NCBI GenBank assembly: GCA_964470365.1
Contig: CAYYCO010000002.1
Coordinates: 1,173 to 65,172 of the forward strand
DNA: 64,000 bases
Reading direction: 5' to 3'
Source: an uncultured Anaeromyxobacteraceae bacterium
GTDB lineage: Bacteria; Myxococcota_A; UBA9042; DTJE01
Part shown: piece after piece, positions 3,396-59,113 of the stretch
How positions within the stretch are numbered: position 1 is the stretch's first letter
How the letters are laid out: each line of letters begins with the position of its first letter
Program-made: the position numbers and the translations under genes
Notes under the pieces: model-generated
What the model saw: the letters and a program-made list of their open reading frames with translations, nothing else
What the model was told of the DNA's origin: nothing
Databases searched by the model: none

Positions 3396-3524
3396 GATAC
3401 TTTCATTTTTCGAAAGTTTCAAACATTCATGGCACCCGGGAAGCCGCGCAGTTGCGCAATGATGGGGGACTCAAGGCCGCTTTCATGCAACGCCGCGGGT
3501 GCCGACCGACGGGGCGCGCCACCA

Positions 3525-11277: not shown

Positions 11278-11321
11278 GCCCACCCCGCCGGCCACGCAAG
11301 GCCGCGTCACAGAGCCATATG

Positions 11322-12752: not shown

Positions 12753-12755
12753 GCG

Positions 12756-13745: not shown

Positions 13746-14059
13746 TACCGAATCCCGATACCGCAGCCGCCCGGCTTGATGAAGGGATGAAGAAACCCCC
13801 ACAACCCCAATTCGGCAAAGTATGCCAATACTGACCGGGTTGTCAAACCGGTCTTCTCCCGATATTCCCATCCGTCGGGGCGGTTCGGTCGACGCGGGTC
13901 GCGGGCGCGGGCTGCTGCAGGTGCTGTGAACGCTCCGGATGTGTCAGGCAAATCTCCGGTTCCGGTTTGACTTCGCCGGACTCCATGAAATAAACTTTTG
14001 TCCGGCAATTCGTCTGATTGTGACAACCGATTGCTCTGACTCATTTTCTGGCAATAAAG
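13746..14059. promoter_or_regulatory. Divergent intergenic region (probable bidirectional promoter/operator) between the rSAM operon and the nitrogenase-like operon
   Basis: 314 bp non-coding (188 bp if the rSAM starts at 13871). Contains an imperfect inverted repeat ggcaattcg...ccgattgc near 14000-14035. No sigma-70 consensus could be assigned confidently. Confidence 0.35.
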
Positions 14060-14878
14060 ATGCAGCGCGAACGGGTGGCGGTGTACGGCAAGGGAGGGGG
14101 TGGCAAGTCTTTCATTTCCGCCAACCTTTCCGTTGAATTCTCGCGCCATGGTTACAGCACCCTGCAGATCGGCTGCGACCCCAAACACGATTCGACCAGG
14201 TCACTCACTTCCGGCAAATCCATCAGGACCGCGCTTTCGTACATGGAAGAAACCGGCCGGCTTGTCGGCAACACGGAATTCGACGTTGTCCAGGGACTTG
14301 AAGGTGTTGCGTGCGTCGAAACCGGCGGGCCGGAACCGGGTGTCGGCTGCGCGGGTCGCGGGATCGTCAGCGCTTTCCAGTTTTTCAGGTCCAGGAACCT
14401 CCTGGACAGATACGACGCCGTGGTGCTTGACGTCCTGGGCGACGTCGTCTGCGGCGGATTCGCCGTGCCGATGCAGCGCGGATTCGCGGAAAAGATCGTC
14501 ATCGTCGTTTCCAATGCCCTCATGTCCATGTATGCGGCGAACAACATCGCACGTGCCCTGGTCCGGTACCGCCGAAACGGGGTATTTCTGGCCGGCATAA
14601 TCGCGAACAATCTTCGCGACGACGACGACGAACAGGAAATTCGACGTTTCGCCGAAGGGTTGAGGGCGCCGGTCATCGCCGCGTTCCGCCATGACCTTCT
14701 GGTCCGCAGGGCCGAAAGGATGGCGCTTCCGCTGCTGGTGGCATTTCCCGACTGTTCCACGGCCGGGGCCTTCCGCGGCCTGGCCGATGCGATAATCAAC
14801 GCCGGCCGGGTCGATGACTGCCCGACGCCATACAGCGAGGAAGAACTGGACTGTTTCTTCAGGAGCCTGCACGAATGA
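14060..14878 (+). CDS. NifH/BchL/CfbC-family ATPase (nitrogenase-like Fe-protein homolog)
   Basis: YGKGGGGKS P-loop, CDPKHDSTR switch I, GGPEPGVGCAGRG (Cys97 equivalent) and VLGDVVCGGFAVP (Cys132 equivalent, switch II). Confidence 0.9.
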   Translation: MQRERVAVYGKGGGGKSFISANLSVEFSRHGYSTLQIGCDPKHDSTRSLTSGKSIRTALSYMEETGRLVGNTEFDVVQGLEGVACVETGGPEPGVGCAGRGIVSAFQFFRSRNLLDRYDAVVLDVLGDVVCGGFAVPMQRGFAEKIVIVVSNALMSMYAANNIARALVRYRRNGVFLAGIIANNLRDDDDEQEIRRFAEGLRAPVIAAFRHDLLVRRAERMALPLLVAFPDCSTAGAFRGLADAIINAGRVDDCPTPYSEEELDCFFRSLHE

Positions 14879-17031: not shown

Positions 17032-18276
17032 TTGAAAATCGCCCCTTACTTCCTTGACGGCTGCATCCTGACGCTTGCCGGAATGCCCGACCTGGTGTCC
17101 GTTATCGATTCTCCCCTGTGCGAACTCGAGCGGGCCTACACCCTCGATCTCGTCAGCGACGGACACGCGAGCCTTCTTGGCGGCGGCCCTTACGCGAGGG
17201 GCACGAAGCGGCTGTTCACGGTGGACTGGACCCACGGACGCGACGTCAGCGGCGTCGAGCAGAGCCTTGTCGAAAGCATCATGGCCACCGCAGCGATACA
17301 CCCCGACAAACCAATAATGGTCCTCGCCGGTTTTCTGTCGCTGCTGGTGAACACCGACATACCCGGCCTTGTCGCGGATCTGTCCAGCCGTGTCGGCAAC
17401 CCGCTCATCACGGTGAAACAGGATTCTCTGGACGATGACTGGATTGACGGGATTGCTGCCACCCAGGCAGCCGTGCGCGCCGCCATGCCCGTTTCCGGCG
17501 GCGATCCCGGAAGGCCGGTTTTCGAAGGCTACGCTTTCCTTCGACAGAGCGGCGACGAGTGGGGGGACGTGGCGGAACTTGCGGCGTTCGCCAGGTCGGT
17601 CGGCCTGCCGGACCCGATATGGCCTTTTAACGGAATCACGTCTTTTCGAACGCCGTCGCATCCGTCGGCGCCGCGCATCAGGTTCCCGTATGCGCCTGCG
17701 ACCGGGGACGGGAGGGCCGTCGATGTGCCGCTGCCGATCGGACTGGACGACACCGCGCGTTTCATTCGGGTCCTTGCGGACATCGCCGGAAATCCCGCCG
17801 CCGGCGAAGAACTGATTGAACGCGAAACCATGCGCGTGATCAGGATACTCATTCCGCGGATAACGAAGTCCTTCGCGGGCCTGGGCGCTGTCGTGGTGGC
17901 GGACCCGGCGAGGGCCAGGGGGCTGGTGCTGGCGCTTCGCGACCTGGGGATATTCACCCCGCTTGTGATTGCGCTGCGACGATCCGGCATGGGCGAGGAA
18001 GACCTGGCAGCGTGCAGGGGCCCCGGCACCACGGTGATGGTGAATCCGACCCAGCATGACGTGGAAGAAAAGTTCCATGAGGTGGCCTCGAACGGACAGG
18101 CCACCCTGATGATCGGCTCCGGGTTGACGCGGGACGCTGCCCGGAATGCCGGGCTCTCGGTGATCGAGGCGGCATATCCGTGCGTGGCCGAAACCTTTGC
18201 GGCAATGACCCCTCTGATGGGATTCAACGGTTTGCTGCACCTGGCGGATCGCATCGATTCGGCCCTGCTCAGGTGA
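17032..18276 (+). CDS. Nitrogenase component-1-like (NifK/BchB/ChlB-like) subunit
   Basis: TTG start 1 nt after the upstream stop, with GGAGGTG upstream. N-terminus MKIAPYFLDGCILTLAG...VSVIDSPLCELERAY resembles BchB/ChlB MKLAYWMYAGPAHIG...VHAIMHAPLGDDY. Rossmann-like repeats follow. Confidence 0.6.
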   Translation: MKIAPYFLDGCILTLAGMPDLVSVIDSPLCELERAYTLDLVSDGHASLLGGGPYARGTKRLFTVDWTHGRDVSGVEQSLVESIMATAAIHPDKPIMVLAGFLSLLVNTDIPGLVADLSSRVGNPLITVKQDSLDDDWIDGIAATQAAVRAAMPVSGGDPGRPVFEGYAFLRQSGDEWGDVAELAAFARSVGLPDPIWPFNGITSFRTPSHPSAPRIRFPYAPATGDGRAVDVPLPIGLDDTARFIRVLADIAGNPAAGEELIERETMRVIRILIPRITKSFAGLGAVVVADPARARGLVLALRDLGIFTPLVIALRRSGMGEEDLAACRGPGTTVMVNPTQHDVEEKFHEVASNGQATLMIGSGLTRDAARNAGLSVIEAAYPCVAETFAAMTPLMGFNGLLHLADRIDSALLR

Positions 18277-22894: not shown

Positions 22895-22967
22895 GGGCCC
22901 ATAGCTCAATTGGTAGAGCAGCGGACTCTTAATCCGGAGGTTGGCAGTTCGATTCTGCCTGGGCTCA
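22895..22967 (+). tRNA. tRNA-Lys (anticodon CTT)
   Basis: Acceptor GGGCCCA/TGGGCTC, D-arm GCTCAATTGGTAGAGC, anticodon loop CTCTTAA (CTT), T-arm GGCAG-TTCGATT-CTGCC, discriminator A. CCA is not encoded. Confidence 0.85.
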
Positions 22968-41442: not shown

Positions 41443-42072
41443 CTATTTCCTGGCGTCCTCGAGCGACCGTCGGAAGTCGCCGAGTGCCTCGTTGACCTGG
41501 GCGTCGCGGACGATCATCGCCGGGATGGAACCGCCCGGCTCGCTGTAAACCTGGTACTGGACGACGCTGCCGCCGGCAGGGTCGGGCGTCACCTGCCAGA
41601 ATCCCTTGACCAGCGGCATCCTGACGTAGCCGGGATCCACCGGGGGCCCGAATTCCGTGGTCGTCTGGAACTCAATCCGCAGTGCCCCTTCCGAATCGAC
41701 ACGACGGATGCGCATCGTATAGTCGCGGTCAGACACGACGGGCGTTTTCACGCGGTCGTAAAAGACGATTTCCCTGGATTCCCGCTTGAAGAACCTTCTT
41801 TCCTGCACGGGCGGCTGATAAGTGAAGAAGCTTTCCCACAGTCTTTCGACGAGTTGATCCGGAGCCACCGGGGATTTCGTGTCGAACCTGGTCACATAAA
41901 ACCCCTTCGTGCGGCCGGGCTTGCGGCTGATCGTTATTCCATCCTTCGTGCGCCGCAGCTCCTTGAAACCGTCGCCCTGCGCCGTGGCCGGAACCGGCGC
42001 CAGGCAGGCCGCCAAAACGACCGCTGTGACAGGCAGCGCCGCCGCCATCGACCGGAAAACTGGCGCAATCAT
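41443..42072 (-). CDS. Hypothetical secreted protein
   Basis: Internal ATG at 42072 gives a signal peptide MIAPVFRSMAAALPVTAVVLAAC. The longer track ORF N-terminus is Cys/Arg-rich and implausible. Confidence 0.5.
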   Translation of the reverse strand: MIAPVFRSMAAALPVTAVVLAACLAPVPATAQGDGFKELRRTKDGITISRKPGRTKGFYVTRFDTKSPVAPDQLVERLWESFFTYQPPVQERRFFKRESREIVFYDRVKTPVVSDRDYTMRIRRVDSEGALRIEFQTTTEFGPPVDPGYVRMPLVKGFWQVTPDPAGGSVVQYQVYSEPGGSIPAMIVRDAQVNEALGDFRRSLEDARK

Positions 42073-42356
42073 GTCGAACACCTCACGAAAAAAGTGACTG
42101 AAAAATTCTAGCATAACGGGGACCGGCCTTCCCGGGCAGATCGACGGAATGCGCGCCGCGACGTGAACGGGGGGCGGACCGTGACGACCGCAGATACAAC
42201 AATGCCGGAATACCCGACAACCGGGGATCACGAACGATACTCGAATGACGGGCCGATTGCAGTCCTTTGACCATGCGCGCATTGACAAACACTGGTTCAG
42301 CACCTACAAATATCTGCGACCGTCCGCAAAGGGCGGCAAACGGTACGGGGGCGACG

Positions 42357-44400: not shown

Positions 44401-44476
44401 GGGCCTATAGCTCAGTTGGTAGAGCCACCGGCTCATAACCGGTTGGTCCCTGGTTCGAGCCCAGGTGGGCCCACCA
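44401..44476 (+). tRNA. tRNA-Met (anticodon CAT; elongator type or tRNA-Ile2), with encoded CCA
   Basis: GGGCCTA acceptor, D-arm AGCTCAGTTGGTAGAGC, anticodon stem ACCGG/CCGGT with loop CTCATAA, T-arm CCTGG-TTCGAGC-CCAGG, discriminator A, CCA. Confidence 0.85.
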
Positions 44477-45477: not shown

Positions 45478-48400
45478 CTACTTCATGCAGGCGGAAGTGG
45501 TGTTGCGGAGACTGGTCAGCGTCTTGCCCTGCGAATCGGCAGTGACGATGTCGAGACACCCGTCGGCGTCAACGTCAACGACCGACATGTCGATCGGTGC
45601 CGTGCCGGTGTCGAAGCCGTAGGGTTCGCTGAAATGGCGGTTCCCGAGGTTGACGTAGATCCAGGCCATCGACGAATCCTTGTCCAGGACGACGATATCC
45701 ATGTATCCGTCGCCGTTCATGTCGGCCAGTTCCAGCGCCACCGGCGCCGATCCGGGAAACGGAACCGCGACCGGGGGTTCGAAGCCGATGTCTTCACCGA
45801 TCATGCCCACTCCGTCCTTGTCGAGCGAATACGATATGACGATGTTCCGGCTCAGCAGCGCCACGACGTCGGGATATCCGTTGTTCGCGTCGGCAATCGG
45901 CGCCGTGCCGTCAATCGGGCTGCGCAGATATCCGGCCTTTATGTCGACAGGCGCGCCGCCGACCGCGAAATCGCGGCTGCCCTCGGCCTTGGTACGGAAG
46001 ATGCCGAGCCCCTTGGCGAGGAACACCGTGAAGTCGCCCGTTCCCGCATTGGCGACAATCAGGTCGTTGCTGCCGGCCTTTCCCAGGGCGTAGTTTCCGA
46101 GGATGCGCCGCATCGGGAAAGCAATTATCGTGGAGGGCTGGCGGTCCTCCTCAATCTCAAGCGGTGCAATCAGGCTCCCGCTCGACGTCGTGAACTTGAA
46201 CGACCCGTCCATGTTGCCAAGCATCGGCTGGAGCATCCACATCGCATTTTCCCCCTCGACGTGATAGATGAACGCCACGTCCGTCACGTCGTAACCGACG
46301 CTGCTCAGCTCGTCAAAATCGGCGACCGCGGCCAGCGAAGGCAGGTTGCCGGCCACTATCGGCCGTACCGACGCCCCGACCGACATGTGCGAAGTCTCGT
46401 TGAAAAGGACCGCCGCCGATGTCGCGTGATCAGGGGCGTTCTGCGCTTCGGAGGACGTGACGATCAGGTCATCCGGCCTTTCCGCGGCTTCGGTCGACCC
46501 CAGGTAGAGGTGAAGGTCCAGGTTGCCCGCGACGATCCGCTTCGCGGTTCCCAGTCCAAGTTCGATCTCGCCGGACGGAATGATTGGCATACCGACGACG
46601 GAATCGGACGCGAAGACGCCGATCCTGCTTTTGTTGGCCACGGGCGGCAACAGGACGGCGGCATCGACGAAATCGGCCTTGGCGCCCGACAGCGGCTGCG
46701 TGAAGTGGCCTGTGGCCAGGGACAGTGGCACGTCGCCGAGCAGCGCCTGGTACGACCCCATGAAGCGCCGTCCATCCTCCTGCTCGCGATAGTAGATCAC
46801 CGTGAGGGCGTCGCCGTCGCGGTTCAGAAGCACCACGTCCATAAGACCGTCGGCGTCCATATCGGCCATCGCCACGTCGCGGGCAGCGCCCGAAAGAAGC
46901 GATATGTCGCTGCGGACGTATTCGTAGCCCGTGAAATCGCTGTTTCCCATGAAGAGCTGAACCATGTTCGCGCCCGCGCACAGGACCGCCAGGTCGACGA
47001 CGTTGTTGCCGTCGATGTCGCCAATCGCGATGTCTCTGGGATTGAGACCAGTGGGCCATGCCTTGCGGGACTCGACCCTGAAGGACGTGTCAACCAGGCC
47101 GGCGATGCTGAACAGGCCGTCGCCGGACGAATCAAGCACAATCAATGAGTCCGGTGCGGCAGTCATAGATGCGAAATTGACCGCTGCCAGGGCCGAGACG
47201 TCGTCAATCTGCCCGTCTTCGGGAGTAAGTGTGCTGTTTTCACCGCTGGTCACGACACCGTCCTGGTTGACCGGGAACACCGTGACCATGCCGCTGGCCG
47301 GCCTGCCGACCACCACTGCGTTGCGCCCGTTGGCGCTGAACCTGCCGATGGTGACCTGTTGCGGCATAATCGCCCCGGAATAGAAATCTGCCGCACCCCA
47401 GGTTTCAAGGTCGCCGTATTCATCGACCAGCGAAAGGATGATCCCCGTCGAATCGAGTTCGTCATCGTCGACGAAGGCGATGTCGGGGAAGTTGTCGGAG
47501 TTGAGCTTGTCGACCGCCATGCCGATTACGTCGACCGACAAAGGAATCGTGCCGATCTCCACGAATTCAAGATTGTCCGACTGCGCGATGATGACGATGC
47601 GGCGGGTTTCCTGCGCGCCGCAGAAGGCGACGATGTCGTCCATGCCGTCGACGTTCATGTCGACGACGGCGATGCGCTGGCAGCCGTCCGCCAGAACGTC
47701 GGCCACTGGTTCGGCGATTCCGAACCTGATTCGCTGCTGGATGGACAGGCCGTCGGCCTCCGCGACCGCGATCCCCCAGATGCCGTCGTCGGCAGGCCCG
47801 AGCCTGATACCGGCGATGGTGGTGCCGACCGTTCCGAGCGGGAAAGCCACGTTTTCACCGCCCACGAACCCCGGAACCTCGACGAGGTTCATCGAATGTT
47901 CGACCAGAACATCGTGCCCCGCAACGCCGTCGTCGGCCGTAACGGTCATTGTAACAGGCCCACCCAGCCATCCGGCGATCGGAACGACCAGATCAGTGAC
48001 GTTTTCCCCGTCGACGACCCTCGTGTCCACGACCTCGGCCGTTGCCCCGGCCTGTTCGGGCCACGACCATTCGAACCCGTTGACCGAGATGCCCACGTTG
48101 TGGACCTTGTTGCCTTCGTCGGACACCTTTACGCGGATCGTCAGGCCGCCGATGAAATTGGAATCCGCAAGCGGGGTCGGGTCCAGGATTTCGACCAGCG
48201 GGGCCTTGTTGTCGACAAGTATCTTACCCTTGACCGAGACCTCGCGGTTGTCCTGCGAAACGGCCACGATCCTGATGGATTCGTTGCCCTCGAGCAGCTT
48301 CCTGGTGTCGATGTCGACGGTATATGTGCCGGAGCCGTCGATACCCATCACGATGGGCTCAAACGACGTGTTCCTGACCATCGAAACCGTCACGGACGCC

Positions 48401-48639
48401 GGAAGATCCAGCGAATCCTCATAACGGAATTGAGCCTTGTACGTGCCGGAAATCACGGGCCTTGCTGCCGGATCGGGCGCGATGAACGACACGGTCTGCG
48501 TCGGGACGGCCACGTCCTCTTCCTGTCCAATGTCGGCCGGCCCGAGATCGTTCGTCTCCGGGCCGTCGCCGCACCCGCCGACCAGCAACCCGGACGCCAG
48601 AACGCAAAATCCCGTCAGCAACATGGTTTTATTTAGCAT
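45478..48639 (-). CDS. Giant secreted FG-GAP/VCBS-repeat lipoprotein
   Basis: Lipobox GGC. Repeated Ca-binding-like DxDxDG motifs (DIDGNNVVD, DMDADGLMD, DMNGDGYMD, DVDADGCLD). Confidence 0.75.
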   Translation of the reverse strand: MLNKTMLLTGFCVLASGLLVGGCGDGPETNDLGPADIGQEEDVAVPTQTVSFIAPDPAARPVISGTYKAQFRYEDSLDLPASVTVSMVRNTSFEPIVMGIDGSGTYTVDIDTRKLLEGNESIRIVAVSQDNREVSVKGKILVDNKAPLVEILDPTPLADSNFIGGLTIRVKVSDEGNKVHNVGISVNGFEWSWPEQAGATAEVVDTRVVDGENVTDLVVPIAGWLGGPVTMTVTADDGVAGHDVLVEHSMNLVEVPGFVGGENVAFPLGTVGTTIAGIRLGPADDGIWGIAVAEADGLSIQQRIRFGIAEPVADVLADGCQRIAVVDMNVDGMDDIVAFCGAQETRRIVIIAQSDNLEFVEIGTIPLSVDVIGMAVDKLNSDNFPDIAFVDDDELDSTGIILSLVDEYGDLETWGAADFYSGAIMPQQVTIGRFSANGRNAVVVGRPASGMVTVFPVNQDGVVTSGENSTLTPEDGQIDDVSALAAVNFASMTAAPDSLIVLDSSGDGLFSIAGLVDTSFRVESRKAWPTGLNPRDIAIGDIDGNNVVDLAVLCAGANMVQLFMGNSDFTGYEYVRSDISLLSGAARDVAMADMDADGLMDVVLLNRDGDALTVIYYREQEDGRRFMGSYQALLGDVPLSLATGHFTQPLSGAKADFVDAAVLLPPVANKSRIGVFASDSVVGMPIIPSGEIELGLGTAKRIVAGNLDLHLYLGSTEAAERPDDLIVTSSEAQNAPDHATSAAVLFNETSHMSVGASVRPIVAGNLPSLAAVADFDELSSVGYDVTDVAFIYHVEGENAMWMLQPMLGNMDGSFKFTTSSGSLIAPLEIEEDRQPSTIIAFPMRRILGNYALGKAGSNDLIVANAGTGDFTVFLAKGLGIFRTKAEGSRDFAVGGAPVDIKAGYLRSPIDGTAPIADANNGYPDVVALLSRNIVISYSLDKDGVGMIGEDIGFEPPVAVPFPGSAPVALELADMNGDGYMDIVVLDKDSSMAWIYVNLGNRHFSEPYGFDTGTAPIDMSVVDVDADGCLDIVTADSQGKTLTSLRNTTSACMK

Positions 48640-48760
48640 GCTGAACCCCATGAAATCCCGCCATATTGTCACGGATGGGCCATACAGCGTCAAGAAAACG
48701 GCCCGGGATGCGGGTGGGCGATCAATCAGGCATGATGCGGAATTTTATTAAACCGGGGAA

Positions 48761-49042
48761 TCAGGAGGAGCTGCCGTCGATGACCGAAACCACCGCGGCA
48801 TCGGTCAGAACGTCGCGGCTGCGCGGTTCAACGGCGTTTCGGGCCCCGCTTCCGAACGCGATAACGACGTCCTGGCCGACCGATGCGTCGAGATTGTCGG
48901 TGGCGACAACCAGCCGGCCCGTGGTTTCGTACCCGCCGCCGCCCAGGGCGCGCAGTTCAGCAACCAGCAGCAGTTTCATGCCCGATATGCGGGGTGCCTT
49001 CTTCGTGGCCCAGACCTCCCCGACGACGCGGCCACGGATCAT
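48761..49042 (-). CDS. Bacterial microcompartment vertex protein (BMC-P; EutN/CcmL/PduN family), paralog 1
   Basis: MIRGRVVGEVWATKK...GMKLLLV...VATDNLDASVGQDVVIAFGSGAR...AAVVSVID matches the EutN_CcmL pattern. Confidence 0.8.
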   Translation of the reverse strand: MIRGRVVGEVWATKKAPRISGMKLLLVAELRALGGGGYETTGRLVVATDNLDASVGQDVVIAFGSGARNAVEPRSRDVLTDAAVVSVIDGSSS

Positions 49043-49344
49043 ATGTTCACCCCCTGGCCACGGACAGGCAGACCCTCATAAATTTCCACGCCGTCGACGA
49101 TGGCCGCGACCGACGCCTCGACCGGGTACCTGGTGTCGCCCATCGCCCACCTGGCCGGCAGTCCCATGCAGACGACCACGTCCTGGCCGACCTCGGCGCC
49201 GACCGGGTCCACGGCAATCAGGTTGTCGCCGTCATGGTCGGGACGGTGCCAGCACAGCGGCTGGATGATCAGCAGCTTCGTGCCGCCAAGCCGTTCGCAT
49301 TTTCTGGTGGCCCAGAGCTGGCCTATGACACGCCCAAGAATCAT
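49039..49344 (-). CDS. BMC-P (EutN/CcmL/PduN family), paralog 2
   Basis: MILGRVIGQLWATRK...GTKLLIIQPL...IAVDPVGAEVGQDVVV...PVEASVAAIVDGVEI. ATGA overlap with paralog 1. Confidence 0.85.
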   Translation of the reverse strand: MILGRVIGQLWATRKCERLGGTKLLIIQPLCWHRPDHDGDNLIAVDPVGAEVGQDVVVCMGLPARWAMGDTRYPVEASVAAIVDGVEIYEGLPVRGQGVNI

Positions 49345-49356
49345 TCCGGTTCCCGT

Positions 49357-49668
49357 TCAGCAGTCGATCGATGCCGCGTCGACAATCGCGATGACCGCGT
49401 TCTTCGTAGTCACTTCCGGCCCCAGGGCAAGGTCCCGCACGCGGCTGCCGATCGCGACGACGACGATCTGACCCACATCGGCGCCCAGCGGGTCGACCGC
49501 CAGCAGGGTCGAACCGGACAGCATCGGCCCGTCGATGTCGGCCCTGATCGTGGTTCCGGGACCAGCGCCGTCCAGACTGATGCGCCGGATCTCGACCACG
49601 CGCCGGGATACCAGCCCGTCTGACTGCCGCGCGCCCCAAACCGTTCCGATTACCTTGCCCAGGATCAT
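49357..49668 (-). CDS. BMC-P (EutN/CcmL/PduN family), paralog 3
   Basis: MILGKVIGTVWGARQ...LLAVDPLGADVGQIVVVAIGSR...AVIAIVDAASI. Confidence 0.85.
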   Translation of the reverse strand: MILGKVIGTVWGARQSDGLVSRRVVEIRRISLDGAGPGTTIRADIDGPMLSGSTLLAVDPLGADVGQIVVVAIGSRVRDLALGPEVTTKNAVIAIVDAASIDC

Positions 49669-50177
49669 CTGTCCGCGCCCTTTTCCAGCAGCGATTTCAT
49701 GGCCGCCGCCTCGTCGTCGAGTATCTTGCGCGCGGTGTCGGCAATTATCAACTCGGCAATCTTCCCCACCAGGAACACCTTGATCTTCAGTTCACCGGAG
49801 ATGATGCGGCGCGTGCGGCCGCCGCCCAGATCGACGAATTCCATCGTGCCGGTGTTTTCAAGCAGGGGCACGATGCCCGCGGTCGTAGGCACGTTTTCGA
49901 ACGACGCCCGGCAGGCGGCAAGATCGATTTCCGATTCCTCGACCCATTCCATCCACTGCGGCTCGACCTTCTTTCCACCGACGTCGCCGATCAGCGGAAC
50001 AGGAAGATACCTGACCCTGCGGCGGATCCGGTCGCCGTCGCGGGACCATTCGAGCGTTTCCGCGTCCAGCACCGTGATCATGGAACCTTTCAGCCGTTCC
50101 GTGACGCCGTTTTCGAAGATTGCCTCCACCAGGCGGCGACGGTCACACGGGAAATCGTGTTCGTACTTGAATTTCAT
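49665..50177 (-). CDS. Hypothetical protein (possibly SRPBCC/DUF2505-like)
   Basis: Internal ATG at 50177 (MKFKYEHDFPCD...), 170 aa. ATGA overlap with BMC-P paralog 3. The longer track ORF N-terminus is implausible. Confidence 0.5.
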   Translation of the reverse strand: MKFKYEHDFPCDRRRLVEAIFENGVTERLKGSMITVLDAETLEWSRDGDRIRRRVRYLPVPLIGDVGGKKVEPQWMEWVEESEIDLAACRASFENVPTTAGIVPLLENTGTMEFVDLGGGRTRRIISGELKIKVFLVGKIAELIIADTARKILDDEAAAMKSLLEKGADR

Positions 50178-50259: not shown

Positions 50260-51153
50260 ATGATCAGACTTAACAAATTTATCGCAGACGCCGGGATGGC
50301 CTCGCGCAGGCAGGCAGAACAGATGATCGCCGAAGGCCGTGTGACCGTTAACGGCAACACGGCGACCATCGGCCAATCGATCGATCCGGAAAGGGACCGC
50401 GTAATGATCGACGGTTCCGGCATCCGCAAGATGCCGGCGCGCGTTTACATGATCATGAACAAGCCGCGCGAGGTCCTCTGCACCGCCGCGGACGCCAATG
50501 GCCGCCGCACCGTGTACGATCTGCTGCCTGATCTTCCGTCCAGGGTCCATTCGGTCGGCCGGCTCGATTTCATGAGCGAAGGCGTGCTGCTTTTCACGAA
50601 CGACGGCGACCTCACCCGGAAACTGACGCACCCGTCGGGCGGCCTGGAAAGGGAATACGAGGTCAAGCTGCAGGGGCCGGTGCGCGACTGGGTCCTGGGC
50701 CGCCTGGCCAGCGGGGTCCAGCTCAACGACGGGATGGCGCGGGCGCTGCGCGTGTCCCGTCTGAGGATGGCGCGCACGAACGAATGGCTGACGATCACCC
50801 TGGCCGAGGGCCGGTACCGCGAGGTCAGGCGCATGTTCGAGGCGGTCGGCTACAACGTCCTGAAACTGAAACGCGTCCGCTTCGGGCCGATCCAGCTCGG
50901 CGACCTGCCGATCGGGCGGGTCAGGGATCTGACCGATGAAGAGGTGATGGCGCTGAAGTCAGGCCGCTCGACCCCGCTGCCGAAACCCGGGGAGGTACGC
51001 AGGAAGCACCTGTCGGAACAGAAAAAACGCGAAAAGGGCTGGGCAGTGTCAAAGGAAAAGAAGCCCCGCCCCGGTTCGTCCTCCTCAAGATCGCCGAAGA
51101 CCGGCACCGGAAACGCCAGACCCCGCACCGCGGCCACGCGTCAGAAAGTGTAA
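50260..51153 (+). CDS. rluB: 23S rRNA pseudouridine synthase, RluB type (S4 domain + RsuA-family catalytic domain, basic C-tail)
   Basis: MIRLNKFIADAGMASRRQAEQMIAEGRVTVNG (S4), HSVGRLD catalytic Asp motif, Lys/Arg-rich C-terminus. Confidence 0.8.
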   Translation: MIRLNKFIADAGMASRRQAEQMIAEGRVTVNGNTATIGQSIDPERDRVMIDGSGIRKMPARVYMIMNKPREVLCTAADANGRRTVYDLLPDLPSRVHSVGRLDFMSEGVLLFTNDGDLTRKLTHPSGGLEREYEVKLQGPVRDWVLGRLASGVQLNDGMARALRVSRLRMARTNEWLTITLAEGRYREVRRMFEAVGYNVLKLKRVRFGPIQLGDLPIGRVRDLTDEEVMALKSGRSTPLPKPGEVRRKHLSEQKKREKGWAVSKEKKPRPGSSSSRSPKTGTGNARPRTAATRQKV

Positions 51154-54100
51154 AGAATCCCGAAGTGGATGTTCCCGAATTCGTCGTTCGACTGGCACTG
51201 GCCCGTATCCGGGTCGATTGTCTTGCAGCGCCTGTCAAGTATGATGCCGTAATCAAGCCTGATCGGGACCACGCCTGCCAGCATGTACCGGAGTCCGACA
51301 CCGACCGAGTGCCTGAAACTCGCACCGCTCAGTTCGTCAAACGATTCCGCCAGCGCCCCGAAATCGTAGAAGGCGGCGCCGTACAGGTCGATCTTCCGGA
51401 TGATCGGGAACCGGATCTCAAACGAACCCGAAACGACGACGTCGCCGCCGAACGGCTTGTACCAGGTCGTCTTCATCGCCTGGTTTCCCTGATCGTCCAG
51501 GACCGGGTCCCCGTTTTCATCCACCATCGGTTCGTCATATGACCGAAGTCGCAGCGACTTGTCCGGTTTGTACTGCCCGACCCCGTCGGTCGAAAATCCC
51601 CGCAGCCCACGGTTTCCGCCGAGCGTGTACCGTTCCTCGATCGGCAGGTCGCCTGACGAAGAGAACGATTGGGAGCCGCCGATCCGGGCGAACAGCCCGA
51701 ACGTGACAATCTTGCGGACACTGAAGAATGCCTTGCCGGTGAATTCGTATTTCAGGTAGTTGCCCTGCGAAACATCGTTGATGTACGCAAGGCTGGCCTG
51801 GGCGAAGAACCCCTTGGTCGGGTTGATCGGATGGTCCAGGCCGTCGTATGTGATCGAGGGCATAAGCTTGTTTTCGTAACGCCACGGGTCGTAAGCGGAC
51901 GACATTGACGGGTCGCGGGTCTTGATGACGCCGGTGTCGAACGACAGCGAACCGAACAGGTGCGGCACGAATTCCTTGGAAATCGCAATCTCGGCGCCGA
52001 ACTGGATCCGGTCCAGCGCCTTGGTCGCCCGGTCGTATTCGGCATACGGCGTGACGCGGAACGAAAGGCCCTTCGCGAAGAAGTTCGGGTCGAGGTACGT
52101 CGGCGTGAACGATGCGTAGCGGTCCCAGGCGGTAAACGAAAGCCCGTACTTGACCGGCAGGTACAGCCGCTTCCCGTAGCCCAGGAAATTGGTGTCCGAG
52201 TACCTCACTTCGAGCGTCATCAGGATATCGGGCAGGTTCAGGCCGAGGCTCCGCCCGAAGCCGGTCGTGGTTATGTCGTTGATCGCGACGGTGTTCGTCA
52301 GGATGGACGACACCGCGGCCGGCATGCTGGCCGACCTGGTCGAATCGAGCTTCTCGATCCCGACGGCGATATCGACGAACTTCGATTTCGCCTCGCGTAC
52401 CCGGACGACAAGGCCGACCCGTTCCCTCGCCGGCTTTTCGTCGGCCCCGACGACGTCGACACGCACGGACTCGAATATCCCGAGATTGTTCAGGTACCTG
52501 ACCGCCGCCGACACCTTCTCCACGTCGTAGGGATCGCCGGTCCTGGGGAAGTCCTTCAGTATGACCGAAGTCTTCGTCTTGACGGCGCCCTCCACGAACA
52601 CCTCACCGACGATGGTGCGCGGCCCCTCGTCGATCTCCAGAAACAGGTCGACCATTTCGGACTTCACGTCGGTCGGCCTGCACGATTCCCGATCGATGTC
52701 TGGCGCGGTGCCTTCGCAGGAAATGTTGACGCGGGCGTTCAGGAATCCTTCCCTGGCGTACCGCCTGCCCAGTTCGCGCAGCGCCTTGTCCAGCGTGACC
52801 GGCGAAAACGCCCGCCCCTTGACCAGCCTCATTATGTCCTGGATCTGCCTGGTCGAAAGGAACTTGTTGCCGCTGATGAGAACTGTTCCGATGGAGGTCC
52901 GGACACCCTCGTCGATCGATATGTCCAGATAAACGCCCTCGGTTTCGCCGATGACGACCACCTCGAACGCGCTCTGGACGCCCGAATACGACAGGACCTC
53001 GTTTCCTTCGTCATCCTTGCGTGTGGTGACGCTGTATCCCTTGTCTATCGTCCCGACGAACTTCATGTCCGGGAAACCGCGCTCCCGATAGAGGGTCCTG
53101 ACCTTGTCAAGGTCGATGGCAATCTGTCCAGGCATCACCGCGCCCGTGCCTCCGAAGAAGTCATAAGGCTTCGTCCCCATCACGGCGACGATATCGGCCT
53201 TCTTCACGGACTTGTTGCCCCTTATCCGGATATCCCTGATTTCCGCCTTCCCGCCGGCCGTGATGAAGTACGAAATCCTCCCGGCGACGCCCTGCCCGAA
53301 CCCGGTCGCCGGCCCGGATCTGGGCCTTGACCTGTAATCCAGTACGACGTCGGCGAAGAGGTAACCGCGATCCTCGAACCACTGCTGCAGGCCGGCGCGC
53401 CCGCGGGAGGCCTCCGACAGGTCGAATATGCCCGACTCGTCGAACGACAGCGATTCGAGGAGGTCCGGGTTGTCGACGGGCTTGAAACCGTTCCTGGCGT
53501 CTTCCGGATCGTCCCGGCGGTATATCCTGATGAGCCAGCAGGAATCCCACGTCACATCCACATTCATCGTTCCGGTGGCCTGGATGTATTCGGACTTGAC
53601 CTTGACGCCGGCATAACCGACCTGACGCAGCCGCCTGACCAGCGCCCTGGCGATTTCAGGATTCGTCTTTTCGGTAAGCGGGCTGCCGCGCCTGATGCCG
53701 GACCACGAAACGAGGTCGGCCTCACGGATGGCTGGACACTCCTCGACCGGCTCGACACCTGACTGGAGGCTGCCGTCCGTACGCGCGGGCGCCGCCACCG
53801 CCATGGACCGCCGCATCGCCACACGGACATCCTTGAGTCTGATGCGCGGCCCTTCCCTGATATCGACGCGCAGCGATACCGAATAGTCGTCGACCGGCAG
53901 GATCTCGATTGTCACCGTCGTCCCGGTGTAGCCGTCCTTCTGGTACTCCTTGCGCAGCACGTTTTCCTGACTGTGCAGGAACTTGATATCGCTGACATTG
54001 GATGCGTCGAACGGATCCCCGACCCTCAAGGACAACTTCTCGGCCAGGTACGAATCCCAGAAATGCTTGTTGCCCTTGAACTTTATCTTCGCAATGCGTT

Positions 54101-54443
54101 TCACCGGGATGACGCTCAACCTGACGTCGACGCCGCTGCCGGCGTTGACGCATTCGATGTCGGCGTGCGTGAAGAAACCCAGTTTCGCGACACGGGCCAG
54201 AGCCACGGGGATCTTTCCCGGATCCAGGTAACCGCCGACCCTCACGTCAACAAGGCTTATCAGGCGCGAAACGAAGTCCGGTTCCCTGCACTCCCTGGTG
54301 GCGCAATCGACGATGGACACCGAAAGGACGGGGCCTTCGCCGCAGGACTCGTATTCCGACGCGTACTGCGCGTTCGCGGGCCACGCCGGTACGGTCTGCA
54401 GCAGGGCGGCCGCCAGGGCCGTTATGGCGATACTCCTATTCAA
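51141..54443 (-). CDS. Omp85-family outer-membrane protein (BamA/TamA-like), unusually long at 1100 aa
   Basis: TTG start with a signal peptide. Multiple POTRA-like repeats. C-terminal beta-barrel ending ...IHFGILYTF. Confidence 0.75.
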   Translation of the reverse strand: MNRSIAITALAAALLQTVPAWPANAQYASEYESCGEGPVLSVSIVDCATRECREPDFVSRLISLVDVRVGGYLDPGKIPVALARVAKLGFFTHADIECVNAGSGVDVRLSVIPVKRIAKIKFKGNKHFWDSYLAEKLSLRVGDPFDASNVSDIKFLHSQENVLRKEYQKDGYTGTTVTIEILPVDDYSVSLRVDIREGPRIRLKDVRVAMRRSMAVAAPARTDGSLQSGVEPVEECPAIREADLVSWSGIRRGSPLTEKTNPEIARALVRRLRQVGYAGVKVKSEYIQATGTMNVDVTWDSCWLIRIYRRDDPEDARNGFKPVDNPDLLESLSFDESGIFDLSEASRGRAGLQQWFEDRGYLFADVVLDYRSRPRSGPATGFGQGVAGRISYFITAGGKAEIRDIRIRGNKSVKKADIVAVMGTKPYDFFGGTGAVMPGQIAIDLDKVRTLYRERGFPDMKFVGTIDKGYSVTTRKDDEGNEVLSYSGVQSAFEVVVIGETEGVYLDISIDEGVRTSIGTVLISGNKFLSTRQIQDIMRLVKGRAFSPVTLDKALRELGRRYAREGFLNARVNISCEGTAPDIDRESCRPTDVKSEMVDLFLEIDEGPRTIVGEVFVEGAVKTKTSVILKDFPRTGDPYDVEKVSAAVRYLNNLGIFESVRVDVVGADEKPARERVGLVVRVREAKSKFVDIAVGIEKLDSTRSASMPAAVSSILTNTVAINDITTTGFGRSLGLNLPDILMTLEVRYSDTNFLGYGKRLYLPVKYGLSFTAWDRYASFTPTYLDPNFFAKGLSFRVTPYAEYDRATKALDRIQFGAEIAISKEFVPHLFGSLSFDTGVIKTRDPSMSSAYDPWRYENKLMPSITYDGLDHPINPTKGFFAQASLAYINDVSQGNYLKYEFTGKAFFSVRKIVTFGLFARIGGSQSFSSSGDLPIEERYTLGGNRGLRGFSTDGVGQYKPDKSLRLRSYDEPMVDENGDPVLDDQGNQAMKTTWYKPFGGDVVVSGSFEIRFPIIRKIDLYGAAFYDFGALAESFDELSGASFRHSVGVGLRYMLAGVVPIRLDYGIILDRRCKTIDPDTGQCQSNDEFGNIHFGILYTF

Positions 54444-57400
54444 TCGGAATCCTGTACCTCAACCTGGTGTCGTAATTACGGCCGATGTCTTCCTGGTCGG
54501 TCGAATACTCGACGGCCTTGAGCCTGCCCTCCAGCGAAAGTCCCTCGGTCAGCCTGATCTTGAAACCGGTACTGTACTGGCTGGTGCCGGCCCCCTGCTG
54601 GACCTGGGTCTGGAACTTGAGCCTGCGCCCGATGTGCGCCGACACGTCGAGGTTGACGTCCCCGCTCGCGGAAACGCCGACGCTGACGGAGTCGACGAGG
54701 TCGGCCAGCATCACCTTGACCAGCGAATCGGTGACGCTGCCGGTCAGCAGGTTCATGTTCACGAAGGAACCCGTGCCGGACGTCACCGACTGCCCCGGCG
54801 CAATCCCGGTCAGCAGCAGCACCTGGAGATCGGCCTGGCTGATCCCGCGGTTCGGCGAGGTGATCTCGATGTCGAGGTCCGGGTACCTGCCCGAAAGCGC
54901 AAGATTCACCTGGATCATGTCGCCGTAGAAGGCATCGTTGCCCTCATCTGCCGAAAACCGCGAAGCGGCCACCATGCCGCCGGAAAAGCCGCTGTATTCG
55001 ATGTAAGTCCTGGCCATGACGTCCAGTTCCGGGTGCCCCGCCTCGCCGTCGAAGTCGAGCGTGCCCCGGTAAACCTCGAACTCGCGCCGGACCACGTTGT
55101 ACGTGAACGTGCCGCCGGGAATGACCTCGACGCGGTTCCAGACCTCCGGGTATTTCAATGTTCCGCGCAGGTTCAGGTTCACGCCGAGATCGAGGTTCGT
55201 CTCGCCCACGCCCAGCTTCGTCCTGACGCCGAACGACGACGCCCTGAGCGCGATATCCAGCCTGGCGTCGGCCAGCCAGGGCACCGACTTCAGGAGACCC
55301 GCGCCCGTCCTCCTTGCGACACGGTCGCCCGTGATGCTGGAAAACGCGTTCCGAACGATGTTGAAGTCCTTATGGTACGAACCGTCCGTCACGTCTATCT
55401 GGCCGGAAACCGCAATTCCCGCGTCCGCCGGATCGGCCAGGGCCCCCGGCAGGAGGCCAATCTTCTCGAATGTCGCGGTCAGCCTGGGTTCGGCCACCAC
55501 GAAAAATTCGCCGGTCGAAACATACCTGACCTGCGACCCGTTCAGGCGCAATTCGCCGTTTTCCAGTCGGCCCTCACGGAGCATGGCGCCCCCGGCCAGG
55601 TTGAACGTACCATCCCCGACGGTTCCCGAAATCCAGTGTTCGTCGGGAATTTTCACGGTCGTGTAGGTTCTGCCCGACGGGCCGACCCATGGTTCCAGGA
55701 CGATCTCGCCGCCGCCGTCGATCGATATCGAATCCCCGAAACCCCTGATCCCCATGCCGATCCTGCCGGTTCTGATGATTCCGTCCAGAACCGGGTTTCT
55801 CAGGGTGCCCGACACGAAAAGTCCGCCCTCGCCGGACGCCATTGCCTGATCGCAGCCACCCGGCGCCGCGCGCTGCGCCCCGCCCCTGCCGGAGATCCCC
55901 AGTTCGCCGTCGGCATTGGAAAACACTCCCTTGATGGCCCTCAGCCAGTGCGTGCCGACCGTTCCGCGAACCATCGCCTTCAGGCCCGACGAATCGTGTT
56001 CCCCGCATACTGACAGGCTCGACACGCCGTCGTCCAGGGTCAGTCCGGAAAGCTGGACATGCCCGTCCGATTCAAAAGTCACATGCAGGAAATCACGGTT
56101 TTCGATCCGCGACTGGAGGTTCATCAGTTCGACCCAGAGGCCGCCCGGCGGGGATTCGAGACGACCGGTTATCGCACCGTCCGAAAAAGATGGCATTCCA
56201 ACGTACAGATGGGCCGTCAGGGCGCCGGCGACCTTCCTTTCCGGTATCGACGGGATCACGTCCTGCGGCTTCAGATCGCGTATTTCGATATCGAGATTCA
56301 TGCCGCTGAAGGTGCCGTCCCTCCAGAACACCCTTGAACCCTGTCCCAGTCTCATGGCCCGGAACAGGTGGTCGGAGGACAGCTGAAGATCCCCGCCGGG
56401 AATCCTTTTCGCGGAGGCGCTTACCGGGGCGAAACTGTAACTTCCGTATTCGAAATCCGGCAGATCCACCACCGCTTCCATCGCCGGGTCGGACAGGCTG
56501 CCCGAAACCCGGGCCGTTGCCGAAACGTTCCCCGACAGGACCGAATCGGGCTGCAGCGCAAGGAGTGTCCTTAACGGAACGCCCTTGAGATCACCCGTCA
56601 GGTCCAGCACGTCGTCGTTCAGGTTCCAGCCACCCCTGACCGCAACGGAACCACCCCCGCGCACGAGGGCGTCGGCCGCAAGCATTTCCAGGTTTCCACC
56701 GGTCGCCGACGCCTTGAGGGTGACGAATTCCAGGGCCCTGTCGAATGCCTCGAGCCTGTCCAGGTGGATCACGGCATCACCCGAAACGGTTCCGGCCGGG
56801 TTTGAAAGCGAGAAGCCTATGTGGCCGGAAGCGCCATGCCCGGTGCCCTGGACACCCTTCATGAAAGGCAGCCGGCCGACGTCCACGGCGGCCAGCTTGA
56901 CGCCGTCAAGGACGACCTCGCCGGCACGGCCGTTACGCGCCGGCGAAGGAAGCTCGATTGCCGCGTCGCGGGCCTCCACGCGGGCGAACGGTGCGACCGC
57001 GCGGAAATTCGCGAGCGTCAGCCTTCCGGCATCGAGGGAGGCGATGGCCGAAGCCGACGACACGATCCAGCCGGCGTAATCGAATCCGGCAACCGCAACA
57101 GCGGCGCTTCCCGATGGCGACGACGCCCTTCCCGACAGACGAAGGTCTTCCAGGGCGACCGAGCCGGCCATGGGAACCTTGAACGGCTTCATCAGGGAAC
57201 CGAGGTCCTTGGCGATCCTGCCTGTCGCGAGCAGCCTGTCCCGTTCCAGATCGATCGACCCGCGAAGGTCCATCGTGTCGGTGCCGCACGTCAGGCGGAA
57301 ACCGGAAACGGAAATCGCCGGGCGCATAAGGTTCCTGCCGGACATCGCCGCCGATATGTCGAACTTGTACGTCTTGCCCTGCAGCACCCCGTAACGGCTA

Positions 57401-58776
57401 ATCCTTCCGGATACCGAGCCGCTGGCGGACAGGCGCATCTCCGAAGTGGTGTCGACCGGCCCTGGTCCCTCGGGCCCCCTGACGGAAGACGCTCCCAGCT
57501 TCAGTTCGCCGGAACTGCCGCCGGGGATCGGGATGGCCGCCGGCCTTATCTTCCTGCCGAGCGTACGCAGAATCGCGGCGACATTGACCCTCGTGAAGTA
57601 CAGCGTGGCGGAACTGTTCCACTTCAGTTCGGGATCCGAAGGGAACGGTTCGAACAACCCGTCGGACAGGTAGACCGATGAAACACCGGCCTTCGCGGTG
57701 GCGGCCACGTCGAAAATCCGGTATTCGCCGCCGTCGTCGCGCCCCCCGGACGCCTCGACATGCACGATGCCAAGATCGACCCCGCCCAGTTTCATGGCCG
57801 GCGAATCAAGCTGTGCGGCGAACTCCGGATTCGCGCGGTCGCCGCGCCCGGTGACCGTCAGTGACACCGGCCCCTTCACCAGCCCTCGCCCCGCCGAGTC
57901 CACTACCGGGCTCCCTTCGGGCAGGTCGATACGGGCCGAAAGCGTGTATTTCAGGTTGTCGCCCCACGACAGATACCCGCCGGATGCGTCCAGCGCCCCG
58001 AAGTCGAACCCGGCGCGGAACCGGTCGAACCGAACCTCGTCCCAGTCGTACACCAGGCCGTCGATCAGGCCCTGCCTGAGGATGGTTTCCCCGGGAACCC
58101 CCATGGCCCCGCCGACCCTGACGTGGGCGATGCCCGACAGGTAATTGAAACGCTCCGCATCGACCCTGATGTGCGTCGGGAAGGTCTGGAGACTGAAGTC
58201 GGTCTTCATGTCGATCCCGTCAATCCGGAGGTCCCATTCGGGGAATTCCAGGTACGCCTGGCCGTTGGTGCCGGATACATGCTCGATGCCCATCAGTATC
58301 TGAAGGGGATTCGGGCTCCTGGGTTTCTGGCCCGGAAAATCGAAGGCATCGACCAGTTCGAGGTGGCCCTTGTCGTCAAACTGAAGCAGAACCTGGTAGT
58401 CGTACAGCCTGACCGACGAAAATTCGAGCCGCAGCTTGCGCTGGTCCAGGTTCAGCACGGAATTGACCAGGGGAAGCAGCTTCACGCGGACCCGTACCAG
58501 CCCCGCCTTGATTATCGGCTTGCCGGCCGGTGTCTTGATGGCGAAATCGGTGACGTCGACAATCCACGGTATCGGGCTGATCTGGATCCGGCCGGCCTCG
58601 AAGCTGCCGGGAATCACGCCCGTCAGGGCCTTGAACAGCAGGTCCGGGAAACCGCTGGAATTCAGCACGAAAAACAGGGCGGTGAACACCACGGCGACGG
58701 TAAGGAGCGTCCTCGTCACAAAGATGTACAGGCCGACGCCAACGGCCCTGACAACCTTTCCGAGGGTCACCGCCAT
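54436..58776 (-). CDS. tamB: TamB/AsmA-like translocation-and-assembly-module protein (DUF490-type)
   Basis: N-terminal TM anchor, huge beta-helix-rich body, 8 bp overlap with the downstream Omp85 gene. ATG at 58776 with GGAGAA upstream. Confidence 0.7.
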   Translation of the reverse strand: MAVTLGKVVRAVGVGLYIFVTRTLLTVAVVFTALFFVLNSSGFPDLLFKALTGVIPGSFEAGRIQISPIPWIVDVTDFAIKTPAGKPIIKAGLVRVRVKLLPLVNSVLNLDQRKLRLEFSSVRLYDYQVLLQFDDKGHLELVDAFDFPGQKPRSPNPLQILMGIEHVSGTNGQAYLEFPEWDLRIDGIDMKTDFSLQTFPTHIRVDAERFNYLSGIAHVRVGGAMGVPGETILRQGLIDGLVYDWDEVRFDRFRAGFDFGALDASGGYLSWGDNLKYTLSARIDLPEGSPVVDSAGRGLVKGPVSLTVTGRGDRANPEFAAQLDSPAMKLGGVDLGIVHVEASGGRDDGGEYRIFDVAATAKAGVSSVYLSDGLFEPFPSDPELKWNSSATLYFTRVNVAAILRTLGRKIRPAAIPIPGGSSGELKLGASSVRGPEGPGPVDTTSEMRLSASGSVSGRISRYGVLQGKTYKFDISAAMSGRNLMRPAISVSGFRLTCGTDTMDLRGSIDLERDRLLATGRIAKDLGSLMKPFKVPMAGSVALEDLRLSGRASSPSGSAAVAVAGFDYAGWIVSSASAIASLDAGRLTLANFRAVAPFARVEARDAAIELPSPARNGRAGEVVLDGVKLAAVDVGRLPFMKGVQGTGHGASGHIGFSLSNPAGTVSGDAVIHLDRLEAFDRALEFVTLKASATGGNLEMLAADALVRGGGSVAVRGGWNLNDDVLDLTGDLKGVPLRTLLALQPDSVLSGNVSATARVSGSLSDPAMEAVVDLPDFEYGSYSFAPVSASAKRIPGGDLQLSSDHLFRAMRLGQGSRVFWRDGTFSGMNLDIEIRDLKPQDVIPSIPERKVAGALTAHLYVGMPSFSDGAITGRLESPPGGLWVELMNLQSRIENRDFLHVTFESDGHVQLSGLTLDDGVSSLSVCGEHDSSGLKAMVRGTVGTHWLRAIKGVFSNADGELGISGRGGAQRAAPGGCDQAMASGEGGLFVSGTLRNPVLDGIIRTGRIGMGIRGFGDSISIDGGGEIVLEPWVGPSGRTYTTVKIPDEHWISGTVGDGTFNLAGGAMLREGRLENGELRLNGSQVRYVSTGEFFVVAEPRLTATFEKIGLLPGALADPADAGIAVSGQIDVTDGSYHKDFNIVRNAFSSITGDRVARRTGAGLLKSVPWLADARLDIALRASSFGVRTKLGVGETNLDLGVNLNLRGTLKYPEVWNRVEVIPGGTFTYNVVRREFEVYRGTLDFDGEAGHPELDVMARTYIEYSGFSGGMVAASRFSADEGNDAFYGDMIQVNLALSGRYPDLDIEITSPNRGISQADLQVLLLTGIAPGQSVTSGTGSFVNMNLLTGSVTDSLVKVMLADLVDSVSVGVSASGDVNLDVSAHIGRRLKFQTQVQQGAGTSQYSTGFKIRLTEGLSLEGRLKAVEYSTDQEDIGRNYDTRLRYRIPIE

Positions 58777-59113
58777 CCGGGTTCTCCATGCCTGCGGGCC
58801 GTGCGGCGCATCCGCGCTGCGGGCGCACACTCCCACGGGTACAACAATTTAGCAGACGTGTGGATAAATACACAGTTAACGACCTTTTCACGCGCGTCCG
58901 CGTGGGGCAGGCGCGTCCGCCGGGGCGCCGTAACCCGCATCGCCGGAGTCTTTCGGGCAGCCTGGACAAAACGCGCACACGATGGCGCCCGAGCCACCGG
59001 ATATCCAGCCGGCGCCGAATCGATGCCAAACGAGAACACTTTAATATCAATCGGTTACGCATCAGGCACGCCGATTGCTGCAATGGCCGGGACCCCGTAC
59101 CAGGTTATGGACG

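Follow-up and report, generated by a model that had tools for sequence, protein, structure and literature searches.

The polyhedral shell of a bacterial microcompartment (BMC) needs only twelve pentamers, and the field has yet to explain why three or more kinds of vertex protein (BMC-P) are retained in bacteria. In the catalog of Sutter et al. (2021; PMC8217296), a BMC-P triplet, composed of one standard pentamer, one member of a 'grey' clade and one member of an 'orange' clade, is described as a hallmark of the HO, ACI, PVM and FRAG locus types. Shell genes of the fragmented (FRAG) loci are distributed there over up to six sites, often without enzymes; FRAG7 consists of an isolated BMC-P triplet and a second locus with a hexamer gene (BMC-H), while FRAG4 has a standard BMC-H at another site in addition to four BMC-P genes and a protein whose ACT domain is accompanied by a private N-terminal one (PMC8217296, Supplementary Data 2). 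According to the same source, all HO loci, as in Haliangium ochraceum, have their BMC-P triplet split between loci, and type I is made up of a satellite with two BMC-P genes and a PF00596 aldolase and of a main locus with the order Tdp-H-P-AldDh-Ts. Moreover, SPU-type microcompartments with three P genes have been described in other deep Myxococcota lineages (2025 preprint, PMC12747264). The stretch considered in this work, referred to as the window, is the whole 64,000 nucleotides (nt) analysed from contig CAYYCO010000002.1 of an uncultured Anaeromyxobacteraceae bacterium (GCA_964470365.1). It carries a cassette of three contiguous BMC-P genes, named P1, P2 and P3, preceded by a gene for a helix-grip protein of the SRPBCC type.

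The SRPBCC and BMC-P cassette

The four genes lie on the minus strand and are predicted to form an operon running from about 50236 to 48761, with the SRPBCC gene in the first place and the three paralogs following in the order P1-P2-P3:

50207..50236, minus strand: sigma-70-like promoter match TTGCCA-18-TATCAT (10/12 matches, by consensus only; such sites are no commoner in the region than in shuffled sequence)
49665..50177, minus strand: SRPBCC (helix-grip) gene, 170 amino acids (aa), first of the putative operon, recognised by PF10698 and the structural model
49357..49668, minus strand: P1 (orthogroup g1), 103 aa, PF03319 at 52.5 bits
49039..49344, minus strand: P2 (orthogroup g2), 101 aa, PF03319 at 84.1 bits
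48761..49042, minus strand: P3 (orthogroup g3), 93 aa, PF03319 at 69.0 bits

An ATGA overlap joins the SRPBCC gene to P1, a gap of 12 nt separates P1 from P2, and P2 and P3 share a further ATGA overlap. The original prediction, made by a model from the sequence, had given spacings of 4 and 12 bp and an SRPBCC/DUF2505-like gene of 170 aa upstream with an ATGA overlap, and the open reading frame (ORF) coordinates agree with it on both points. Overlapping or near-overlapping frames of this kind would couple translation and lead to a roughly equal synthesis of the encoded proteins. The promoter-like match falls within the 82-nt intergenic gap between the SRPBCC gene and a divergent rluB gene, and the site scan of the region found no terminator-like sites inside the four-gene cluster.

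From the same prediction came the proposal that P1, P2 and P3 are three EutN/CcmL paralogs. The check with profile hidden Markov models placed all of them in PF03319 (EutN_CcmL, gathering cut-off of 25 bits), with matches spanning profile positions 1-83 of 83. The three score far below the cut-offs of the CcmL, CsoS4 and EutN equivalogs in NCBIfam and are therefore PF03319 members outside its named subfamilies. Their mutual identity is 31-38% and they fall into separate orthogroups, so that three distinct BMC-P paralogs co-occur; the identity to the HO shell pentamer is 31% for P1, 36% for P2 and 40% for P3. All the relatives of P1-P3 and of their ortholog profiles in the PDB are BMC-P proteins (GrpN 4i7a, HO shell 5v74, CcmL, EutN, CsoS4 and MSM0273). 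The HO shell pentamer is matched by both P2 and P3 at about 4e-10, being the top PDB match of P3 (5v74, 4.4e-10), and the g1 and g3 profiles matched only BMC-P chains. Furthermore, P2 was modelled with AlphaFold2 (predicted local distance difference test, pLDDT, 75.6), and BMC-P pentamer subunits fill all of the first 44 places in the list of its PDB matches, with template modelling (TM) scores of 0.5-0.6. Each paralog would fold as a PF03319 beta-barrel and assemble into pentamers. Signal peptides are absent from P1, P2 and P3.

From the point of view of the single residues, each paralog has features of its own. P1 contains an insertion of about 15 residues and the motifs VWGA[RK] and GSRVRDL; P2 is marked by W11, W32, P35, H37 and C59, with Cys59 invariant in the g2 alignment and W32, P35 and H37 kept in at least 90% of the members; in P3, LDA replaces the canonical VGAG and a GSGARN motif is present. 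Most g2 relatives end in a P-F-x-F-x-x-G-x-x-P tail, in place of which P2 of the window and its closest kin have a short unrelated C-terminus (49039-49100). The tryptophan at position 11 (G-x-V-W) occurs in all four orthogroups g1-g4, the fourth being known from the sister cassettes described below, and is encoded in the window at 49636-49638 (P1), 49312-49314 (P2) and 49010-49012 (P3); the compared references EutN, PduN, CcmL, CsoS4A, GrpN and HO have a valine or a threonine there. The canonical GAGxGE loop reads GADVGQ in P1, GAEVGQ in P2 and DASVGQ in P3.

As regards the partner protein, its match to PF10698 (DUF2505) is marginal, with 28.3 bits against a cut-off of 26.9, and is confined to residues 108-162, i.e. 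the C-terminal third. Its place among the helix-grip/SRPBCC proteins is given by the AlphaFold2 model (pLDDT 89.5), which displays the beta-alpha-alpha-beta6-long-helix layout of this fold, and by Foldseek, whose top matches are TTHA0849, Bet v 1/PR-10, polyketide aromatase/cyclases and Ups1/PRELID lipid-transfer proteins (E 2e-9 to 1e-6, with 2e-9 for START/Bet v 1-type structures), together with Aster. A conserved motif, VEP.WMEWVEES, is found in the protein. It may serve as a co-expressed ligand carrier or as an accessory factor, and we know of no SRPBCC protein linked to microcompartments. The only studied DUF2505 protein is AhfA of Corynebacterium (Cgp_0475), a putative lipid carrier required for mycolic-acid synthesis (PMC9671496). 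The window protein resembles it in the predicted helix-grip fold with a long C-terminal helix and in the marginal PF10698 match of the C-terminal third; however, DUF2505 proper is almost exclusively actinobacterial and connected with mycolic-acid synthesis, and the window protein is a distant relative.

A search for encapsulation peptides on the neighbouring proteins, suggested by the original prediction, gave none on the SRPBCC protein. Homologs linked to a cassette are as long as those standing alone, without any extension, and the C-terminal amphipathic helix belongs to the helix-grip fold in the model; an encapsulation peptide was rejected on these grounds. The stand-alone homologs (loci L009 and L010, 43-47% identity) are placed in another context, without BMC-P genes. 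About 6.5 kilobases (kb) from the cassette, at 41443-42303 on the minus strand, a 286-aa protein with a START match below threshold (20.8 bits, cut-off 22) may be a second helix-grip protein.

Genes for hexameric or trimeric (BMC-T) shell proteins and for core enzymes had been predicted to be missing from the surroundings, and the searches carried out are in line with this. With five BMC-H queries (PduA, CcmK2, HO BMC-H, EutM and CsoS1A), tblastn detected no BMC-H in the 64-kb window (best E 0.46), and Pfam scans of about 45 further window ORFs revealed no PF00936, Aldedh, PTAC, aldolase or other BMC core enzyme. The absence extends over 48.7 kb on one side of the cassette and 13.8 kb on the other, further than the 15 kb given in the original prediction. 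The BMC-H negative is meaningful, since the same queries recover BMC-H in real HO loci with E values of 1e-24 to 1e-54. Around 20 non-redundant cassette loci, amounting to 291 kb in total, no BMC-H was found either. A satellite locus, as defined by Axen (2014) and Sutter (2021), holds a single contiguous class of shell genes and presupposes a main locus with BMC-H and BMC-P at another place in the same genome. The window has the layout of the former, with three PF03319 genes and no PF00936 gene in 64 kb.

Conservation of the block and genomic context

An identical four-gene cluster has been found on four metagenome contigs, and about 11 further lineages, from genome, metagenome and protein collections, carry the SRPBCC-g1-g2-g3 block; the labels of these relatives are Myxococcota, Polyangia, Anaeromyxobacteraceae and 'Deltaproteobacteria'. 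In most of them the order is tamB - bamA - rluB (divergent) - SRPBCC - g1 - g2 - g3, usually followed by an FG-GAP lipoprotein gene. The corresponding neighbours in the window are the following:

54436-58836, minus strand: tamB, TamB family; outer-membrane biogenesis, upstream
51141-54443, minus strand: bamA, POTRA/Omp85; outer-membrane biogenesis, upstream
50260..51153, plus strand: rluB-type pseudouridine synthase (S4 and PseudoU_synth_2), divergent from the operon
45478..48651, minus strand: FG-GAP/VCBS-repeat lipoprotein of 1057-1071 aa (PF13517 FG-GAP_3, 78.4 bits; lipobox LVGGC in the translation)

The synteny, confirmed by tblastn, persists even where the SRPBCC protein is only 43-54% identical and P2 59-67%; parts of the upstream block are not seen in L008, in L031 and where the contig is short. 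In L008 and L031 the FG-GAP gene is also absent downstream of the cassette and, given the stand-alone SRPBCC homologs of L009 and L010, neither the SRPBCC nor the FG-GAP partner is obligatory. Orthology is one-to-one for each paralog across the loci, the order g1-g2-g3 is fixed, and a neighbour-joining tree resolves four clean orthogroups (g1-g4). These comparisons indicate that g1-g3 are ancient, distinct orthogroups predating the split of the two architectures, namely the one of the window and the four-gene one described below.

With respect to the closest relative (L005), the ratio of non-synonymous to synonymous substitution rates (dN/dS) is 0.11 for the SRPBCC gene, 0.16 for P1, 0.06 for P2 and 0.06 for P3; over the four genes and the close relatives it ranges from 0.06 to 0.2, which corresponds to purifying selection and means that all four genes are functional. 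A search of 1.84 billion representatives with the g2 profile returned 9 sequences at E<=1e-30 and 2317 PF03319-like sequences at E<=1e-3, and the g2 type appears from this as a compact family. The only organism name recovered for the outlying members was 'Polyangia bacterium'.

The giant FG-GAP lipoprotein was foreseen downstream by the original prediction and is confirmed by the PF13517 match and the lipobox. Its gene begins 110 nt past P3 on the same strand; it may be co-transcribed with the cassette, in which case the operon would extend into it, or may have a promoter-like site of its own at 48693-48665. The rluB gene is probably not functionally linked to the cassette and represents a conserved syntenic neighbour. 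The convergent bamA (minus strand) and rluB (plus strand) overlap at their 3' ends by 13 nt (51141-51153).

A second architecture, g1-g2-g3-g4, hosts the P2 homologs of 55-64% identity (L017, L018, L020, L026, L027 and L030); L028 and L029 are truncated loci of this four-gene type. The sister cassette regions delimited are:

L017, 9735-13374: sister cassette region
L018, 9736-13538: sister cassette region
L020, 9669-13077: sister cassette region
L030, 9666-13163: sister cassette region

The g4 protein looks canonical, with the motifs GAGVGE and PIDAAVVAIVD and 45-52% identity to the HO shell pentamer, and thus provides a link between the cassette family and ordinary vertex proteins. In the four loci that reach beyond the cassette, genes for an ACT_6 protein and then for a DUF711 protein are found 3' of it, directly in L020 and L030 and past two ORFs in L017 and L018. 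A private N-terminal extension of about 110 residues distinguishes the ACT protein; it contains the motif LLTPSAREF and gives a sub-threshold PDU_like match (E 0.26). In L020/L021 a homolog of the FG-GAP lipoprotein lies immediately upstream of the cassette (blastp 1e-18; L020 5984-9574). Judging from gene order, the adjacency of FG-GAP gene and cassette has survived a rearrangement, as the gene follows the cassette in the window and precedes it in L020/L021. The ORFs upstream of the four-gene cassettes have no similarity to the SRPBCC gene, and on this basis their reading as diverged SRPBCC genes was ruled out. Directly upstream of g1, a small, conserved, lysine-rich ORF (GSKEKLVD) without family match is present in L017 (9372-9725), L018 (9363-9728) and L029 (159-335).

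As to the rest of the window, the Pfam scans recognised mostly housekeeping and transport genes, such as recA, comM and those for AcrB, MatE, permeases, glutamate dehydrogenase and a PEP-utilising enzyme; several ORFs are without family match. On the plus strand, positions 14060-18276 hold a nitrogenase-like trio made of a NifH-family ATPase (PF00142, 256 bits) and two Oxidored_nitro genes, beside which three radical-SAM genes (one of them B12-binding) and an LPG_synthase_TM gene are located on the minus strand; the whole region (9285-18276) may be a cofactor or lipid-modification cluster. An AbiEii toxin/AbiEi antitoxin pair, a type IV toxin-antitoxin system, is encoded at 1879-3422 on the minus strand. 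A defence-system reading was dismissed with zero PADLOC matches, and so was a regulatory-RNA reading, as Rfam finds only three tRNAs in the window (96-168, 22895-22967 and 44401-44473).

Possible roles of the cassette

A fragmented microcompartment, with P1-P3 as its vertex pentamers and with the genes for BMC-H/T and cargo at other places in the genome, is somewhat probable. This shell-elsewhere reading is the likeliest because isolated BMC-P triplets have already been described for the FRAG and HO types, and the resemblance of the four-gene relatives to FRAG4 supports it by homology. P1-P3 would close the vertices of a polyhedral shell having its hexamer and trimer facets, as well as its cargo enzymes, encoded at other sites; we infer that they form pentamers, that these are incorporated into a shell and that a BMC-H is encoded elsewhere. 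The designation of the triplet as a 'satellite' is plausible but unproven. Several observations weigh against a fragmented microcompartment. The canonical motifs are altered, with GAGxGE changed to GA[DE]VGQ or DASVGQ and Trp11 in all paralogs. The published triplets include a standard pentamer, and the window triplet is without the standard-like g4. Membership of g1-g3 in the grey and orange clades is unproven, because MSM0273 (5l37), the only solved 'grey/special pentamer', ranks 10th-14th for the g1, g2 and g3 profiles and is nearest to none of them. The neighbours are envelope genes (tamB, bamA and the FG-GAP lipoprotein) and not metabolic genes, and BMC-H was found neither in the window nor around the 20 cassette loci. 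Finally, neither DUF2505 nor pfam10698 occurs anywhere in the supplements of the catalog (PMC8217296).

Part of this evidence can be read in favour of a shell-independent role, in which the three or four PF03319 paralogs, recruited to another task, would act together with the SRPBCC ligand carrier, for example as a small oligomer of identical or different subunits, maybe in envelope or lipid biology. We know of no such function for any PF03319 protein, and consider this role a serious but doubtful alternative. It would account for the lack of BMC-H in the 291 kb around 20 independent cassettes, obtained with a working positive control, although missing shell genes in the flanks are exactly the fragmented layout published in the catalog (PMC8217296). 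The housekeeping and envelope-biogenesis neighbourhood is kept down to 43-54% identity of the partner genes and the FG-GAP homolog adjoins the cassette in two arrangements, downstream and, in L020/L021, upstream; yet the SRPBCC homologs standing alone in L009 and L010 and the missing FG-GAP gene of L008 and L031 suggest that this neighbourhood may partly be inherited synteny. Moreover, the SRPBCC fold resembles that of lipid-transfer proteins, and AhfA acts in envelope lipid synthesis (PMC9671496), whereas a direct contact of P1-P3 with the FG-GAP protein is unlikely, the latter being an exported lipoprotein and the former having no signal peptides. In a broader form, the genomes with the cassette may encode no BMC-H/BMC-T at all, and g1-g2-g3(-g4) would be vertex homologs with a shell-independent role in Myxococcota, associated with a helix-grip carrier and linked to envelope proteins; this is rather improbable. 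A satellite of an HO-type microcompartment, as in Haliangium ochraceum, appears quite unlikely. The lineage of the relatives is Myxococcota, P2 and P3 match the HO shell pentamer as reported above, and HO loci all have a split BMC-P triplet (PMC8217296), but the PF00596 aldolase of the HO type I satellite is not in the window, and a strict HO-type satellite is unlikely precisely because the aldolase and an HO-like arrangement are missing. In fact, the HO control contexts are all type I main loci with one 96-aa standard pentamer, just 27-40% identical to P1-P3. A protein search with HO BMC-H gave more than 8000 matches, and none of the 120 listed could be linked to a cassette contig or genome (HJZ83582 compared with HET6149327), a comparison of low power that is uninformative and no evidence of absence. 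As for decaying leftovers of a lost microcompartment with no present function, the absence of shell or enzyme genes nearby and the P2 of the window, deprived of the C-terminal tail kept in most g2 relatives, would fit them. This explanation is nevertheless very improbable: the frames are intact and translationally coupled, at least 20 lineages keep them in the same order, and purifying selection, with dN/dS of 0.06-0.2 for every gene, excludes decay.

Whichever role applies, the cassette is a clean and deeply conserved case of vertex protein multiplicity, with a fixed order of paralogs, coupled translation as predicted from the frames, a constant partner that is not an enzyme, and at least tens of kb free of any hexamer gene. 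If the hexamer gene is elsewhere, a member from Myxococcota with a new SRPBCC partner joins the poorly understood fragmented microcompartments; if the genomes have none, homologs of vertex proteins have a second cellular role. A shell-independent role, if true, would be the first tangible clue to why several BMC-P paralogs are retained in many bacteria.

Comparison with described microcompartment types

The described loci most similar to the cassette are FRAG1-8, especially FRAG7 and FRAG4, which share with it three to four distinct, adjoining PF03319 paralogs without BMC-H or recognisable enzymes and come mostly from uncultured lineages. The likeness to FRAG4, i.e. four BMC-P genes and an ACT protein with a private N-terminal domain, concerns only the sister architecture (L017, L018, L020 and L030); the window, in contrast, has three BMC-P genes and no ACT gene, and is therefore not a FRAG4 locus. 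Other differences are the SRPBCC partner, the FG-GAP lipoprotein and the tamB-bamA-rluB synteny, none of which is described for FRAG, and the taxonomic range, as FRAG is not reported from Myxococcota, save for one deltaproteobacterial FRAG8 outlier. The relatives' assemblies VGRB01 and K_DeepCast do not occur in the catalog supplements (PMC8217296), and a literature search for EutN with FG-GAP, or for BMC-P satellites in Myxococc*, found nothing.

The parallel with Haliangium ochraceum drawn by the original prediction is a loose one. What holds is the assignment to Myxococcota and the presence of three BMC-P paralogs away from the hexamer gene, in a system (HO, 5V74) whose function is still unknown; what does not hold is the gene content, since the window has three contiguous non-standard paralogs with 31-40% identity to the HO pentamer and an SRPBCC gene, and contains no aldolase, AldDh or BMC-H/T, so that neither the satellite nor the main locus of the HO type is recognisable in it. 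ADurb.Bin058, an HO-type deltaproteobacterium from an anaerobic digester, was also considered as a match and discarded, two of its BMC-P proteins, of 96 and 143 aa, being unlike the cassette in length.

Beyond what the original prediction contained, the analysis adds a deep syntenic block, fixed orthogroups and a four-gene sister cassette. Taken together, the BMC-P triplet and the fragmented layout follow a known pattern, while the undescribed SRPBCC partner and the unusually deep synteny are new features of this locus.

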